A DNA stretch of 64,000 nt from Minisyncoccota bacterium. GTDB taxonomy: Bacteria; Patescibacteriota; Minisyncoccia; Phycocordibacterales; PALSA-1337. This document shows, one piece after another, positions 52,807 to 61,611 of this stretch (positions within the stretch are counted from its first letter, which is position 1; each line of letters opens with the position of its first letter). The notes under the pieces were generated by a model that was given only the letters and a program-made list of their open reading frames with translations, was not told where the DNA came from and did no database searches. The stretch covers positions 73,086-137,085 of the forward strand of contig JBAYFZ010000001.1 of assembly GCA_041666915.1 (NCBI GenBank), in the 5' to 3' direction. The translations under genes were made by a program, and so were the position numbers.

Positions 52807-53039
52807 ACTAACCTTTCTTTTTGTTTGTTTTGTGCTGATGCTCTAGGAATCATCCTAGAACCAATACCGGCGACGCACTTATGCCGGTACAAGTAATTTA
52901 TCATATTACACAATAGAAGTCAATATGTTGTCCAATTGTAGTAAACGTCAACCCCGCCATTAAGGCGGGGTTAGTGGGAAATCCCAAATTATGCTAAAAG
53001 TTTACCAAATCTGACTTCGAAGTCAAATTTTATCATTGG

Positions 53040-53111
53040 TGCCCCCGGCAGGAATTGAACCTACATCAAACGCTTAGGACGCGTCTATTCTATCCGTTGA
53101 ACTACGAGGGC
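53040..53111 (-). tRNA. tRNA-Arg (anticodon CCU)
   Basis: Reverse complement folds as acceptor GCCCTCG/CGGGGGC, anticodon stem GACGC/GCGTT with loop GTCCTAA, T-arm GTAGG-TTCAATT-CCTGC. Confidence 0.75.
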
Positions 53112-53738
53112 ATTGAATTTTTTCTTTATCTCATTTATGAGACTTATAAGTAGTTTAAAGTATTGCGCACCTTTTGCAACTCTAATACGGCACATGCCAA
53201 ATTTGAGTTTACCTATTTTTTGTCCATGGACAATTTCAATTTTTCCTATTCGTTCTGGTTTTATATCTAAAATGTTTGACCAAAACAAGATTGCTTCTCT
53301 TTTACTGATTCCATTATAGAGTCTCAAGTTGATCTTTAATTGTTCTTTTGCAATACCTATATCTTGTAAACAAGAGACGAAGACTTTGATAAGTTGCGGA
53401 TCAGAATTAATTAGATTTAACTCTTTTTTCGTTCCTTCACCCCAGTAAATACCTATAAGAAGACAAAGTCTTTGTTCAAGAGATAACGGATTACCAATTA
53501 ATTCTTGTGCTTTAGCATCAGCTTCATCCCAAGCTTTTTTAGCTCGTTTTTTACTTCCACCTTGTTTGGTCTTTAATATTGATATGTATTTTGAAGGAAT
53601 AGGGACATTTTTGATATATTTAAATACAGTACTGGAGCCTCTCTTTGTAATCCGTCTTATTTCAGGAAGACTGTGTCCCGTTTTACGTAACGAAATAATT
53701 GAATCTATTTCTGATTGTGTAATCGGTATTCCATTCAT
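53085..53738 (-). CDS. HTH DNA-binding protein with a LAGLIDADG-like motif (possible homing-endonuclease-like protein); 3' end overlaps tRNA-Arg
   Basis: N-terminal resolvase/IS-type HTH (GHSLPEIRRITKRGSSTVFKYIK). LLIGIYWGEGTK resembles the LAGLIDADG dodecapeptide. The last 27 nt overlap the tRNA. Confidence 0.35.
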   Translation of the reverse strand: MNGIPITQSEIDSIISLRKTGHSLPEIRRITKRGSSTVFKYIKNVPIPSKYISILKTKQGGSKKRAKKAWDEADAKAQELIGNPLSLEQRLCLLIGIYWGEGTKKELNLINSDPQLIKVFVSCLQDIGIAKEQLKINLRLYNGISKREAILFWSNILDIKPERIGKIEIVHGQKIGKLKFGMCRIRVAKGAQYFKLLISLINEIKKKFNALVVQRIE

Positions 53739-53809
53739 TGGTTTATGATATTAAATTATATTAATGACGTACACTTCCGTCGGGAAAATAAATCTGTTAT
53801 AGTGTTCCC

Positions 53810-54103
53810 ATGACCCCAGAAGAGAAGTCATTATTGGAGCGCACATACAAAATGGCCGAGGAGAACAATCACATTCTCCGCGGTATTCGTAGATCCAATC
53901 GCTATGGTATAGCGGCAAAGATTTTCTATTGGGTAGTCATTATAGGTATTACTTTCGGTGCATTCTATTATTTACAACCGTATTTAAATTCAATGGTTAA
54001 TCTCATTGAACAAGCACAGAAGGCAGTACAAAGTGTAAATGGTACAGTTAGTCAGGCACAGAATATTTTTGGTTCTGTAACTGGTTCAACAACGAAGAAA
54101 TAG
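53810..54103 (+). CDS. small membrane protein (1 TM)
   Basis: 97-aa ORF with a central hydrophobic helix. Confidence 0.4.
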   Translation: MTPEEKSLLERTYKMAEENNHILRGIRRSNRYGIAAKIFYWVVIIGITFGAFYYLQPYLNSMVNLIEQAQKAVQSVNGTVSQAQNIFGSVTGSTTKK

Positions 54104-54137
54104 GATCTTTTAGAGGAGATACAGTAAAAATACCAAC

Positions 54138-54210
54138 GCCAAGGTAGCTCAGTTGGTAGAGCATTCCCCTGAAGAGGGAAGGGTCACCAGTTCGATCCTG
54201 GTCCTTGGCA
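54138..54210 (+). tRNA. tRNA-Phe (anticodon GAA)
   Basis: GCCAAGG acceptor, TAGCTCAGTTGGTAGAGC D-arm, anticodon stem TTCCC/GGGAA with loop CTGAAGA, T-arm ACCAG-TTCGATC-CTGGT. Confidence 0.85.
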
Positions 54211-54344
54211 CTACTTCATAGCATTGGCTTGACTGATAGTCATCCATGTGCTATACTATTACTAGTCAATTGAGTCTACGAAAATTATGTCGTAGGTTCA
54301 TAGAGTTAGTTCTTCGTAATATAACCCATTCAGAAAGACAGATT

Positions 54345-55777: not shown

Positions 55778-55824
55778 GTTGGCGTAAGTATGCGGAATCT
55801 TTGGTAAATATGCAAGTCCCGTTA

Positions 55825-55914
55825 TGTCATTCCCGCGAAGGCGGGAATCCATGTCAGACCACAAATAAACTTTTCTTGGTAATATCCTGGATTCCCGCCT
55901 TCGCGGGAATGACA
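55825..55914. repeat. MITE-family copy in the response-regulator promoter region
   Basis: TGTCATTCCCGCGAAGGCGGGAATCCATGTCAGACCACAAATAAACTTTTCTTGGTAATATCCTGGATTCCCGCCTTCGCGGGAATGACA. Confidence 0.75.
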
Positions 55915-55970
55915 CAAGAGGACCAACGGATTTGACTTAACCCCGCGATTTTGTTACCTTATGTCTACAT

Positions 55971-57456: not shown

Positions 57457-57831
57457 ATGTATACATTGATAATAATATTTTATATATCATTCATAGGTAT
57501 CATAACGATGGTTCTACTCAAACGTTATGAAATGAAGACCGGCAAACCTACGGTTGTCTCCAACTTGGGTCGTTCAATAGATCACATATTGTCCTCTATT
57601 TTTGCTGAGATTAAAAAGTTTGTTTCGTACCTCAATAGGAAGACGATGATTGCAATATTTCATCTTGTGGCTTATCATATTCTACTCAGGATTAGGAAGA
57701 TCTATGTTGAGATCAAACATCAGACTCTTTTGAATCCTCATGGCAAGAAATTGATAGATGCTGTAAGAGGACGTGGGGAAGTCAAGAATCATGGTGCATC
57801 GTTTTATTTGAGAAGGATTTCGGATAAGTAA
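57457..57831 (+). CDS. small membrane protein (hypothetical)
   Basis: 124-aa ORF with an N-terminal TM. Confidence 0.35.
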   Translation: MYTLIIIFYISFIGIITMVLLKRYEMKTGKPTVVSNLGRSIDHILSSIFAEIKKFVSYLNRKTMIAIFHLVAYHILLRIRKIYVEIKHQTLLNPHGKKLIDAVRGRGEVKNHGASFYLRRISDK

Positions 57832-57857
57832 AAGTCGGTTTTATATTTTAAATTTCG

Positions 57858-58005
57858 TTTAAATTCGCCATCTTAGCTGTTTTGGTAGGTATGAGCGGGT
57901 GGGTCGTAAGGAGTAAGTGTCCAAAGAAAATTAAATTCGCCATCTTAGCTGTTTTGGTAGGTATGAACGGGTGGATCATGAGAAGTTAGTGTTCAAAGAA
58001 AATTA
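57858..58005 (+). repeat. two tandem ~72-bp repeats, each beginning with a degenerate copy of the tRNA-Thr 5' end
   Basis: TTAAATTCGCCATCTTAGCTGTTTTGGTAGGTATGARCGGGTGG... occurs twice, then a third time as the authentic tRNA (GCCATCTTAGCTCAGTTGGTAGAGC). Confidence 0.65.
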
Positions 58006-58010
58006 AATTC

Positions 58011-58083
58011 GCCATCTTAGCTCAGTTGGTAGAGCAACACTTTTGTAAAGTGAAGGTCCTCGGTTCGAATCCGAGAGATGGCT
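58011..58083 (+). tRNA. tRNA-Thr (anticodon UGU)
   Basis: Acceptor GCCATCT/AGATGGC, canonical D-arm, anticodon loop TTTGTAA, T-arm CTCGG-TTCGAAT-CCGAG. Confidence 0.8.
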
Positions 58084-58114
58084 CCTTAGGAATACTCAGA
58101 GATAGTGATTATTA

Positions 58115-58567
58115 GTGTTAAGTATAATTTTTATGATTAGAAAATGCACAGGTTGTGGTGTTGTTTTGTCGCAGAGATATAAAATAAAATATTGTTCGAA
58201 TAAATGCCAAGCTGATTTTCAATACAAACTTTTCATTAATAATTGGAAGGATGGTCTTGAAGATGGTGTTATTGGCAAGGACGTTAAATCATTATCAAGA
58301 CATCTGCGTCGTTATTTAGCAGATAAAAACGGGGAGAGGTGCTTTTATTGTGGGTGGAATGAAAAACATCCAATAACTGGTAAGGTCACTTTAGAAATTG
58401 ATCATATTGATGGTAATGCTGAAAACAATGAAGAAGGTAATTTACGTTTGTTGTGTCCAAATTGTCATTCATTAACACCTTATTTTAGGAATCTTAATAG
58501 AGGTAATGGGAGGAAGTGGAGAATGGATAAGTATAAAAAACAAGTAGCAACCCAGCCCATTTTCTGA
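58115..58567 (+). CDS. HNH endonuclease
   Basis: CFYCGW...EIDHIDGNAENNEEGNLRLLCPNCH (HNH with Cys4 zinc ligands), immediately downstream of tRNA-Thr. Confidence 0.7.
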   Translation: MLSIIFMIRKCTGCGVVLSQRYKIKYCSNKCQADFQYKLFINNWKDGLEDGVIGKDVKSLSRHLRRYLADKNGERCFYCGWNEKHPITGKVTLEIDHIDGNAENNEEGNLRLLCPNCHSLTPYFRNLNRGNGRKWRMDKYKKQVATQPIF

Positions 58568-58582
58568 TAAAGTTATCCTTAT

Positions 58583-59290
58583 ATGGAAAACGATAAAAAG
58601 GGTCACCTACATCCCATAACTCAAATAGTTCGTGAGATTTTTTCAATATTTAGAGATTTAGGTTTTGAAATAGCAGACGGACCAGAATTGGAAGATGAAT
58701 TCCATAACTTTGATGCTTTGAATGTTCCGAAAGATCACCCGGCTCGAGATATGCAAGATACGTTTTGGATCAAGGATGCTCCAGATGCAGACAAAAAGAG
58801 AGTTCTACGTACTCACACCTCTTCGGTTCAGATTAGGTACATGGAGAAACATAAACCACCAGTACGTATTATTATCCCTGGTAAAGTTTTTCGTAATGAA
58901 GCTACCGATGCTACGCACGAAGCTCAATTTTTCCAGATAGAAGCTCTCTATGTAGACAAAAATGTTTCCATGGCGCATTTGAAAGGAACTTTGGAAAATA
59001 TGTTCAAGAAATTATTTGGCGATGACGTAGAGATACGATTCCGTCCAAGTTTCTTTCCATTTACCGAACCTAGTGTTGAAGTAGATATGAAATGGAAAGG
59101 TAAATGGTTGGAAATGGGTGGTGCAGGTCTCGTACAAAAGAATGTTTTTGAAGCTGTTGGTGTAGATCCAAATGAATGGCAAGGATTTGCTTTTGGTTTT
59201 GGTTTGGACCGTCTTGTTATGCTCAAGTTTGGTATTGATGATGTCCGTTTTCTTTATAATGGAGATCTAAGATTGGTAAATCAATTTTAA
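58583..59290 (+). CDS. pheS: phenylalanine--tRNA ligase alpha subunit (catalytic core only, 235 aa)
   Basis: FDALNVPKDHPARDMQDTFWI, RTHTS, FFQIEALY, and class II motif 3 GFAFGFGLDRLVML. Confidence 0.85.
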   Translation: MENDKKGHLHPITQIVREIFSIFRDLGFEIADGPELEDEFHNFDALNVPKDHPARDMQDTFWIKDAPDADKKRVLRTHTSSVQIRYMEKHKPPVRIIIPGKVFRNEATDATHEAQFFQIEALYVDKNVSMAHLKGTLENMFKKLFGDDVEIRFRPSFFPFTEPSVEVDMKWKGKWLEMGGAGLVQKNVFEAVGVDPNEWQGFAFGFGLDRLVMLKFGIDDVRFLYNGDLRLVNQF

Positions 59291-59508: not shown

Positions 59509-61611
59509 ATGAAAGTCTCACGAAATTGGTTACAAACATATTTTGATAAAGAAATTCCAACAGCAGAGAAGTTGGATGAGCTTTTTACTTTCCATGCTTT
59601 TGAAGTTGAAGGAGTAGAGACTTTGACTGGGCCTGGTATCGCTAAACCCGATTCTATTCTTGACGTGAAGATTCTTCCAGACCGTGCTCATTATGATCTT
59701 TGTCACAATGGTATCGCTAGAGAAATTTCAGTCCTGACCGGTTTACCTATGAAAAATCGCTTTGCTGAAGAGCTCAAAGTTACTAGCAAAGAGAAGCCTT
59801 CCGTAAAAATCATTTCCGGAGGTGAAGCCTTCGGAAGCCTCGCTTCCGGAAAGCAGTTTTGTCGTCGTTATACGGCTAGAACTATTGAATTGGGTAGTTC
59901 AAAAGCGGTAGGAACATCCCCTGTATGGCTCAAAAATGCTCTAGAATCAATAGGACAACGCTCTATCAACTCTATCGTGGATATTACAAATTACGTCATG
60001 TATGACATTGGTCAACCATTGCATGCTTTTGATGCCGATAAGGTCAAAGGTGGTATTACTATTCGTCCAGCCAAAGATAGTGAAAAAATAACTTTGCTTG
60101 ATGGTAGAGAGATCATTTTGACTTCTGTTGATAATGTTATCGCCGATGAAGAAGGTCCTCTTGTCATCGCTGGCGCAAAAGGTGGTAGACGCGCAGAAAT
60201 CGGTGAGTCAACAAAAAAGATAATTATAGAATCTGCCAATTTTGATCCAACTATGGTTCGTCGCACTGCTACGAAATATGATATTCGTAGCGATTCTTCA
60301 AAGAGATTTGAAAATGAAATAACTGCTGAGCTCGCTATGAATGGTATGAATAATGTTTCAGCTCTTATTTTAGAAATGATTCCTGATGCAAAATTCGGTC
60401 CTGTTGTTGATGGATATCCAGTAGAACAAACACCGACTGTTATAGATTTTGATCCAGCTTATTTGAAAGAACGTCTAGGAGTAGATGTTCCATTGGATGA
60501 AGCAAAAAGTATTTTGGAAAGAATGGGGATCGTGGTTTCTGTCATTCCCGCGAAGGCGGGAATCCAGGATATGACCAAGGAATCTGTATCTAGTGGTAAT
60601 ACACTGGATTCCCGCCGAAGTTTATCCTCGGAGAGGACGGTAAATGACACAGAACAATGGATTCTTACCATTCCTTTTGAACGCCTAGACCTTATCATTA
60701 AAGAAGATATTGTAGAAGAGGTAGGACGTGTCTACGGTTATGATAAGGTCAAAGGAATACTTCCACCTTTACAAAAAGATGAATCAAATAAAAAGGTCTC
60801 AGAAATTTTGCCGTTATTCTATGTTTCAGAGAAAATAAAGAGTACCTTGGTTGAACTAGGTTTCTCTGAAGTTAGCCTTTACGCTTTGGTTGAAAAAGGT
60901 GATATAGAAATCGCTAAACCTTTGGCCAAAGATAAAGGTTTTGCTCGCAACAATCTTTCAGGTGGAATGATGGCTTGTGTAGAAAAAAATGCTCTCAATG
61001 CAGACCTCCTCGGCCTTGAAGTTGTGAAAGTCTTTGAGGTTGGACATGTTTTCACAGACAAATCAGAACAAGTTCATTTATCTATTGGTGTTGCACAAAT
61101 AAAAAAGGTAAAAGGTTTGAAAGCAGAAAATATTATTACGGAAGCGATCAAAAAGATTGAAGAAAAATTGATGGTCAGTATAAGTGGTAAGACGGTGAAT
61201 GGTAAAACTGGTAACTACAGTGTTTTTGAAATTGATCTAGAATCTATCGTCAAATCTTTCCAATCACCTATTTTATTTGAAGCTTTGAATTTCACCCCAG
61301 CTTCTACAAATCGTTACAAGAAATTCTCGTTATATCCATTCATCGTTCGCGATGTTGCGGTCTTCGTACCAGAATCGGTTGAAAGTGAAAAAGTTTGGAA
61401 TGTTATAGAAAAGGGTATTGCAGAAGCTGGTGCCAATGATCTGCTCGCACGTCATTCTTTGTTTGATACATTCAAAAAAGAAGGAAAAGTCTCTTACGCT
61501 TTCCGTATGATTTTCCAATCTAAAGAGAGGACTCTTACCGATGAAGAAGTAAATAAGACTATGGAGGTTATTTATTCTGGCTTGAAAGGGGAAGGTTGGG
61601 AGGTTAGGTAA
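59509..61611 (+). CDS. pheT: phenylalanine--tRNA ligase beta subunit, with an in-frame repeat-element insertion of about 36 aa
   Basis: MKVSRNWLQTYF N-terminus, B3/4 and B5 regions, C-terminal FDVA-like domain. The segment VIPAKAGIQDMTKESVSSGNTLDSRRSLSSERTVND is encoded by a MITE copy. Confidence 0.85.
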   Translation: MKVSRNWLQTYFDKEIPTAEKLDELFTFHAFEVEGVETLTGPGIAKPDSILDVKILPDRAHYDLCHNGIAREISVLTGLPMKNRFAEELKVTSKEKPSVKIISGGEAFGSLASGKQFCRRYTARTIELGSSKAVGTSPVWLKNALESIGQRSINSIVDITNYVMYDIGQPLHAFDADKVKGGITIRPAKDSEKITLLDGREIILTSVDNVIADEEGPLVIAGAKGGRRAEIGESTKKIIIESANFDPTMVRRTATKYDIRSDSSKRFENEITAELAMNGMNNVSALILEMIPDAKFGPVVDGYPVEQTPTVIDFDPAYLKERLGVDVPLDEAKSILERMGIVVSVIPAKAGIQDMTKESVSSGNTLDSRRSLSSERTVNDTEQWILTIPFERLDLIIKEDIVEEVGRVYGYDKVKGILPPLQKDESNKKVSEILPLFYVSEKIKSTLVELGFSEVSLYALVEKGDIEIAKPLAKDKGFARNNLSGGMMACVEKNALNADLLGLEVVKVFEVGHVFTDKSEQVHLSIGVAQIKKVKGLKAENIITEAIKKIEEKLMVSISGKTVNGKTGNYSVFEIDLESIVKSFQSPILFEALNFTPASTNRYKKFSLYPFIVRDVAVFVPESVESEKVWNVIEKGIAEAGANDLLARHSLFDTFKKEGKVSYAFRMIFQSKERTLTDEEVNKTMEVIYSGLKGEGWEVR
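60540..60648. repeat. MITE-family copy inserted in-frame within pheT (right arm degenerate)
   Basis: TGTCATTCCCGCGAAGGCGGGAATCCAGGATATGACC...GTATCTAGTGGTAATACACTGGATTCCCGCC|GAAG... Internal sequence is shared with the rsmH copy. Confidence 0.7.

Follow-up and report, generated by a model that had tools for sequence, protein, structure and literature searches.

Tandem copies of a tRNA 5' end upstream of tRNA-Thr in a Minisyncoccota genome: a candidate family of tRNA-leader repeats

The repeat array upstream of tRNA-Thr

A tandem repeat array lying directly upstream of a tRNA-Thr gene was investigated in a DNA stretch of 64,000 nucleotides from Minisyncoccota bacterium (GenBank assembly GCA_041666915.1, contig JBAYFZ010000001.1, positions 73,086 to 137,085 of the forward strand), referred to here as the window. 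The gene order at the locus is rpsB, tsf, a 124-aa open reading frame (ORF), the repeats, tRNA-Thr, an HNH endonuclease gene, pheS, a DUF1653 gene, and pheT. The genuine tRNA-Thr(UGU) gene was called by ARAGORN at 58011–58085 on the forward strand, and it matched the Rfam tRNA family RF00005 with 69.3 bits. Bacteria of the candidate phyla radiation (CPR) have genomes of about 1 Mb with mostly single-copy tRNA genes. To our knowledge, gene regulation in the CPR is almost uncharacterised.

The first-pass annotation of this DNA had reported two tandem units of about 72 bp, each opening with a copy of the tRNA-Thr 5' end. These units were recovered by two methods. Tandem Repeats Finder gave a period of 72 bp with 2.3 copies and 92% matches at 57859–58022. 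In a repeat search, unit 1 (57859–57930) and unit 2 (57931–58002), both on the forward strand, showed 90% identity to each other. The same search found a 30-nt repeat family with three copies at an exact spacing of 72 nt. The third copy, at 58003–58032 on the forward strand, is a partial repeat made up of the leader TTAAATTC and the first 22 nt of the genuine tRNA, and it shares 90% identity with the units. The window has two copies, and no more, of the 23-mer GCCATCTTAGCTGTTTTGGTAGG (at 57867 and 57939), and no copy was obtained in shuffled sequences. The observation in the window was confirmed as real and non-random.

Unit 1, as delimited by both methods, consists of the 8-nt leader TTAAATTC, a pseudo-tRNA core, about 29 nt of unrelated sequence, and an AT-rich tail. 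The core box of unit 1 (57867–57893, forward strand) carries tRNA positions 1–12 (GCCATCTTAGCT), followed by GTTTTGGTAG-GTATG in place of the CAGTTGGTAG-AGCAA of the tRNA; it was assigned from the same box in relatives and from position frequencies. The core box of unit 2 (57939–57965, forward strand) was located by the 23-mer search. Similarity between unit and tRNA ended at about +26, and the remainder of the two units was no closer to the tRNA than shuffled sequence was (p = 0.45 and 0.97). The unit was also considered as a decayed copy of tRNA positions 1–64 with a T-loop remnant (GTGTYCAAAG). This candidate was rejected because the alignment from +27 to +64 was at the level of shuffled sequence. 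The two units differ at seven positions, all of them at tRNA-equivalent +28 to +54, and the part from −16 to +27 is invariant. The chance of such clustering is C(27,7)/C(72,7), about 6 × 10−4 by our own arithmetic.

The units repeat, head to tail, the leader of the tRNA together with its first ~26 nt, and the true 5' end of the tRNA is the last, partial repeat of the array. About 45 nt lie between the copies in the window, with no insert. Three other assemblies (L001–L003) were 100% identical at the locus and were uninformative as strain variants.

Units in relatives and in metagenomes

Relatives were sampled from contigs encoding homologues of the HNH protein and from 80 species-representative genomes. 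Units were searched at the orthologous loci with any 6 mismatches tolerated in 24 nt. They were found ahead of tRNA-Thr(UGU) in four relatives: L006 (two units), L007 (two), L012 (one), and L029 (two). Identity to the window was 69% for HNH and 88% for rpsB in L006, and 63% and 50%, respectively, in L007. In all nine units, counting those of the window, the sequence is exactly TAGCTGTYTTGGTAG at the place of TAGCTCAGTTGGTAG in the tRNA. The acceptor part (the first 7–12 nt) followed the local tRNA and read GCCATCT, GCCACCT or GCCGGCA. Window unit 2 was identical to the L006 units over +13 to +30 and unalignable with them over +31 to +72; L029 and the window were identical at 16 of the 18 positions from 13 to 30. 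Past about +30, unit sequence was unalignable between species. The first-pass annotation had called the copies degenerate, but their departures from the tRNA are not random decay: the positions in question carry identical substitutions in every relative with units. Units were absent from L004, L008, L014, and L015, which have the tRNA and the HNH gene.

A metagenome scan with the pattern GCCNNNNTAGCTGTYTTGGTAG, in which positions 4–7 are free, gave at least 120 loci. The metagenomic counts below refer to the 120 matches listed. About 110 of these lay 34–150 nt upstream of a tRNA gene and were co-oriented with it, and about 10 were chance matches within coding regions. Six preceded intron-containing tRNA-Thr genes that ARAGORN had missed. 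These unit-preceded genes (L103, L114, L130, L133, L142, and L186) have a long insertion just past the anticodon region, and by their sequence the insertions look like group I introns. After deduplication, 81 arrays had an identified downstream tRNA, namely Thr-UGU (22), Thr-CGU (19), Thr-GGU (18), Phe-GAA (18), Lys-CUU (3), and Ile-UAU (1). The acceptor was the tRNA's own in 100 of 118 units, though positions 4–7 were unforced. Units independent of the pattern preceded tRNA-Val (L095), tRNA-Ile (L181), and tRNA-Asp (L190). The acceptor of two units in L181 had drifted from the tRNA at three positions, and in L190 CAACTGGTTAGAGC was changed to GTTTTGGCTAGTCT.

The shared core of the units comprises tRNA positions 1–12 and then GTYTTGGTAG-RTAT, which replaces CAGTTGGTAG-AGC. 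At the positions that the pattern did not force, the preferences were R at 23 (78% of units), T at 24 (72%), A at 25 (66%), and T at 26 (53%). Arrays among the matches listed held one to five units, which were usually the same throughout an array; the last unit stood one repeat period away from the tRNA. Periods clustered at 35–44 nt and 65–79 nt, and the shortest unit was 34 nt. Copy number varies between strains, as L115 with three units and L125 with two have shared flanks. Arrays were located at contig ends in L089, L097, L101, L110, L118, L128, L134, L145, L147, L148, L157, L165, L173, L175, and L203. Short-read assemblies are thus interrupted by the repeats, and copy numbers taken from them are minimum values.

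Nineteen arrays occupy the spacer directly after another co-oriented tRNA. Canonical promoters were found upstream of unit 1 in L089, L091, and L115. The gene families next to the arrays were housekeeping ones (prfB, tsf, rpsB, and ftsE), and an HNH gene lay within 800 bp of almost no metagenomic array among the matches listed. No Rfam family matched the units. Full-text searching of the literature gave no description of such repeats, nor of an association between HNH genes and tRNA-Thr.

Evolution and possible role of the units

The units expand and contract in the manner of a variable-number tandem repeat (VNTR) and are near-identical within an array. The box at positions 13–26 is common to different species and tRNA types, and the rest of the unit varies. 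Because the tRNA 5' end is the final, partial repeat of the VNTR, the leader and positions 1–12 stay identical to the tRNA. Units would be born by tandem duplication, through slipped-strand events or unequal recombination. Concerted evolution would keep the leader and positions 1–12 matched to the tRNA, and purifying selection would keep the box, which would act in cis on the tRNA precursor. The part from +13 to +27 appears to be under such selection: it is kept where the tails are saturated, at no fewer than six tRNA types, and between both units of the window. The evolutionary mode of the repeats is clear, and they are apparently an undescribed tRNA-leader element.

The results suggested that tandem '5'-tRNA-mimic' leader repeats form a widespread family in CPR bacteria of the Paceibacteria type, to which the array belongs as a selected cis element; the probability of this reading is put at about 0.5. 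The array would be co-transcribed with the tRNA, and RNase P would then cut it off as the 5' leader. The box, unstructured and rich in U and G, would most likely be recognised as a single strand by a factor of transcription elongation or RNA processing, and would less likely be a promoter or a folded RNA. Long units of about 72 bp probably also duplicate the proximal −10-like element of the tRNA, and the extra start sites would likely be secondary. That the box is read in the transcribed leader, as RNA or on the non-template strand, is suggested because it is co-oriented with the tRNA, occurs at any distance and copy number, lies inside tRNA clusters, and stands downstream of promoters. These four features fit a promoter or operator less well. 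In the window, the −10-like hexamer TATATT (57842–57847, forward strand), about 20 nt 5' of unit 1, is a possible start of the leader transcript; it was picked out by eye from the sequence and failed a two-hexamer promoter scan.

More tentatively, the units may represent an undescribed class of cis element, a '5'-mimic box' composed of tRNA positions 1–12 and GTYTTGGTAG-RTAT. This element would have been born repeatedly from tRNA genes and selected in the pre-tRNA leaders of Paceibacteria, where it would recruit a lineage-specific factor for transcription or 5' maturation, with copy number tuning the effect. If true, a conserved element of variable copy number at many tRNA genes would give a first handle on the control or processing of tRNA precursors in the CPR. 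A regulatory box taken again and again from the very gene that it regulates would also be unusual. The units are open to being mis-called as pseudo-tRNAs or as scars of attachment (att) sites.

Several points weigh against a selected leader element. Its role as a leader box is argued from orientation, flexible distance, and flexible copy number, and the pattern could in part be due to selection against misfolding into a tRNA-like form. At positions 13 and 25 of the D-stem, the changes are transversions, and a transition would keep a G-U wobble. The metagenomic set was retrieved by the motif itself, so conservation of positions 8–22 in that set is circular; the unbiased support comes from five related species and from a small number of nearby tRNAs, the latter in genomes where the motif had already been found. 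The absence of units from the close relatives L004, L008, L014, and L015 means that the element is dispensable. At L169, tRNA-Met has three decayed 5' copies that were rewritten differently.

Two alternatives without a leader box were weighed, and each is unlikely. In one, every unit is a duplicated promoter that tunes transcription of tRNA-Thr (and of HNH-pheST), and the box TTTTGGTAG... is an extended −10-like site for RNA polymerase. The long units do duplicate about −45 to +27, close to the generally known footprint of one RNA polymerase, and they probably include the proximal promoter of the tRNA. Many of their tails hold TAnnnT or TGnTAnnnT ending 7–13 nt before the next G+1, for example TGTTAAAAT in every L006 unit. 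Natural promoters of these lineages are clearly of the extended −10 kind, T-rich and of TGnTAG or TGGTAT type (TGCTAGAAT, TGTTAGAAT, TGGTATAAT); the box resembles their upstream half (TnTTGGTAG), and the difference in copy number between strains would suit tuning. However, it is the box that stays constant and not the hexamer-bearing tail of the unit, most short-period units (34–43 nt) lack any TAnnnT, and the distance from the box to tRNA +1 ranges from 12 to 55 nt. Of the sigma-70 extended −10 features, the box has TGG and TAG, but the critical −7 T is missing, with T at position 25 in 7% of units and, in the alternative register, at position 29 in 14%. A promoter scan of the window found none in the units, and the TGnTAGnnAT pattern was not enriched upstream of the window genes. 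The box was rejected as a −35 or −10 element on account of this inconsistent geometry and the lack of a −7 T. The other alternative, equally doubtful, is a functionless slippage product formed by neutral duplication and homogenisation, in which the shared changes come from selection against a leader copy that folds like the tRNA 5' half or competes with it. The patchy occurrence in close relatives and the variable number of near-identical units agree with slippage. So does the fact that the changes fall exactly on D-stem and tertiary-pair positions 13, 14, 15, 24, and 25, by transversion where a transition would preserve the wobble pair. With the D-stem broken, however, positions 13–30 should drift like the tails; yet over this part the window equals L006 and matches L029 at 16 of 18 positions, where the tails are unalignable. 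The same GTYTT...RTAT recurs at no fewer than six tRNA types, whose acceptors differ, and mutation of the acceptor strand, the most effective block to competition, is not used. Neutral slippage with selection against misfolding explains the transversion bias in the D-stem but not the conservation of +13 to +30 across species.

Two further readings are much less likely. It is very improbable that the units are by-products or decoys of the HNH nuclease, which would cut the tRNA D-arm, with repair duplicating the sequence and the GTYTT variants being cleavage-resistant copies. There is a tight linkage between the HNH family and tRNA-Thr genes, and the units depart from the tRNA exactly in the D-arm, but units occur at only 5 of about 57 HNH-linked tRNA-Thr loci. 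Nearly all metagenomic arrays listed lack an HNH gene within 800 bp, and many stand at Phe, Lys, Ile, and Val tRNAs. Least credible is the origin proposed in the first-pass annotation, an integration scar in which the partial tRNA copies are attL/attR-type duplications of an integrative element with HNH as cargo. tRNA genes are common integration sites, a large serine recombinase abuts the tRNA 3' end at L108 and L136, L004 would be an 'empty' site without repeats, and att duplications likewise place a partial direct tRNA copy beside an intact gene. Such att repeats, however, are usually exact copies of the tRNA 3' part, placed on either side of kilobases of element DNA that includes an integrase. 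The units copy the 5' part and the leader, identity to the tRNA stops at position 12 and gives way to a conserved variant sequence with a rewritten D-arm, and the copies are separated by 12–50 nt with no element or integrase between or beside them. Units are as short as 34 nt and number up to five per array. Of about 200 loci, only 3–4 had a recombinase homologue, located at a tRNA 3' end in the two that were resolved (L108 and L136). No integrase remnant was found in 57457–58567, where the 124-aa ORF had no Pfam match and the other ORF matched HNH only. A cargo role of HNH is likewise unsupported: the gene is syntenic in relatives with or without units, and the same units occur elsewhere without it. 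The repeats were kept with the same rewritten D-arm in four diverged relatives. Conservation in relatives, which the first-pass annotation had itself named as a finding contrary to a scar, was largely observed, and the integration scar is unsupported.

Further candidates were rejected. A unit acting as phage attP was not indicated, since among the 120 viral-contig matches listed none adjoins a tRNA (no integrase check was made) and the matches were at chance level. For a CRISPR array, the segments between repeats would not be identical or 85% identical within arrays as they are here, no cas genes were present, and the neighbours were housekeeping genes. For a type III toxin-antitoxin system, the arrays precede a tRNA, and there was no conserved nuclease gene downstream across loci and no toxN; for the window HNH protein, PADLOC gave only matches of HNH type. 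ORF clustering around 110 arrays (among the matches listed) gave housekeeping synteny only, and no shared neighbour protein emerged as a trans-factor; an apparent 'recombinase cluster' near the arrays came mostly from spurious ORFs running antisense across tRNA genes. Small ORFs on the antisense or plus strand were rejected because the repeat periods are not multiples of 3. With regard to a structured RNA, the sole recurrent pairing, positions 8–14 with 19–25, had a dG of 0 to −1.7 kcal/mol. Covariation was seen neither at 7:26 to 3:30 nor at 15:23, and complementarity of the acceptor strand to the unit remainder equalled that of the shuffled control (5.25 vs 5.23). An extended hairpin of the pseudo-acceptor strand with the downstream unit showed no excess over permuted controls and no covariation in the stacked register. 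A register-shifted D-like hairpin (8–14 with 19–25) would explain four substitutions but was thermodynamically negligible.

The proposed leader element was compared with known systems. At the E. coli tyrT locus, 178-bp tandem repeats reportedly each contain the last ~19 nt of tRNA-Tyr. Like the units, these repeats adjoin a tRNA and include a fragment of it, and they are co-transcribed with it; unlike the units, which occur at many tRNA types and in many species, they lie downstream, copy the 3' end, and belong to a single locus. The rrn P1/P2 tandem promoters and upstream activators are also repeated cis modules before a stable-RNA gene of high expression, and long units share −10-like hexamers with them. 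In the units, however, what is conserved is a box of tRNA origin that has no canonical −10 and stands at variable distance, and it is present in promoterless short units as well. The ops/RfaH, boxA/Nus and RNase E entry sites are similarly short, orientation-dependent, unstructured leader sequences at variable distance and copy number, and GGTAG is common to the box and ops (GGCGGTAGCGTG). There is no overall sequence match to these sites, and the element described here is linked to tRNA genes, from which it derives. ToxI (36-nt units) and CRISPR arrays resemble the present arrays in having tandem units of ~35–40 or ~72 nt upstream of a gene. They differ in that the arrays have no ToxN-like or cas gene, the 'spacers' of one array do not differ from each other, and the final repeat is formed by the tRNA 5' end.

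The HNH gene and other features of the window

The HNH endonuclease gene (58133–58567, forward strand; 144 aa) is not part of the repeat element and was assigned by Pfam, PHROG, PADLOC, and homologues. It had been placed 30 bp downstream of the tRNA, but the GTG at 58115 (29 nt past the tRNA) is only the longest-ORF start; the start backed by homologues is the ATG at 58133, 47 nt past the tRNA. The protein is 100% identical to P0001, which is annotated as coming from a Candidatus Paceibacterota metagenome-assembled genome (MAG). It scored 26.9 bits against Pfam HNH (cut-off 21.4) and has invariant H91, N110, and H112 with two CxxC pairs. Matches to phage families were obtained with PHROG HNH (E = 2e-21) and PADLOC 'HEase' (7e-11). 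The AlphaFold2 model had a mean local confidence score (pLDDT) of 84, and the best folds, McrA, Cap5, and PacI, were generic HNH neighbours only.

In 76 of 80 species, the HNH family gene had a tRNA-Thr gene within 700 bp, with the anticodon UGU in 72 cases. The tRNA was upstream of HNH on the same strand at 49 loci, downstream on the same strand at 17 (13 UGU, 3 GGU, and 1 CGU), and on the opposite strand at 10. The family was found in CPR groups, Pyrinomonadaceae, a Phormidium, and a Chloroflexia MAG (loci L008–L087). Identity of the HNH protein was decoupled from that of the host, being 66% where rpsB was 91% and 63% where rpsB was 50%; the gene is nonetheless syntenic in all close relatives examined. 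Because the adjacent tRNAs have lineage-specific acceptor stems, the HNH gene has settled beside native tRNA-Thr genes rather than travelled with one. From sequence evidence, a free-standing homing-type endonuclease tied to tRNA-Thr genes fits the family. The earlier suggestion of a homing endonuclease is strengthened by the linkage and the decoupled identity; the link between HNH and tRNA-Thr is supported and is independent of the repeats. Phage free-standing HNH nucleases (T4 Mob/Seg-type; PHROG) are likewise small, intergenic beside a conserved gene, and of host-decoupled identity. The window family differs from them in being chromosomal (CPR, Acidobacteria, Cyanobacteria, and Chloroflexi), strongly conserved (~50–69% identical), and beside tRNA-Thr, with a predicted nuclease role. 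Adjacent to tRNA-Thr in ~95% of the species sampled across phyla, the family is a clean candidate for a homing endonuclease that resides in the chromosome and has a tRNA gene as its target.

The order rpsB-tsf-x-tRNA-Thr-HNH was kept in L004, L006, L007, L012, L015, and L029, with or without units. Beside HNH, the window pheS (58583–59290) is a short 235-aa form that is 64–80% identical in L004 and L015. In L007 and L029, pheS is only 30–32% identical and on the opposite strand; downstream synteny therefore shifts among relatives while tRNA-Thr and HNH stay paired. The spacer between the tRNA and HNH (58092–58128, forward strand) contains an inverted repeat, ATACT (58092–58096) and AGTAT (58121–58125), which overlaps TATAAT (58123–58128) and was recognised from the sequence and from relatives. 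Many relatives (L009–L078) have an extended −10 of the form TGGTATAAT or TGGTATACT 5–15 nt before the HNH start, inside an ATACCA-N12-25-TGGTAT inverted repeat, of which the window has its local version. This inverted repeat could be an operator or could hold promoters facing both ways. The short spacing between −10 and start suggests leaderless or near-leaderless HNH mRNAs.

On the 5' side of the array, the 124-aa ORF (57457–57831, forward strand) is syntenic in relatives, had no Pfam or NCBIfam match, and is not an integrase remnant. The recombinases at L108 (11852–13429, reverse strand) and L136 (2151–3728, forward strand) are 525-aa large serine recombinases whose last codons lie antisense inside the 3' part of tRNA-Phe and tRNA-Arg(CCU), respectively. 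They look like ordinary integrated elements at tRNA 3' ends, unrelated to the units. The same divergent tRNA-Arg(CCU)/tRNA-Phe pair is present in the window at 53037–54211.

A different repeat, the palindromic GTCATTCCCGCGAAGGCGGGAAT, has 11 copies in the window, with 0 expected. Its sites are 55816–55923, 60537–60616, and nine more (5957, 6315, 12420, 12484, 15411, 15489, 45911, 49666, and others). One pair stands between a response-regulator gene and rpsB, and one copy lies within the pheT frame as an apparent in-frame insertion (...VIPAKAGIQDMT...).

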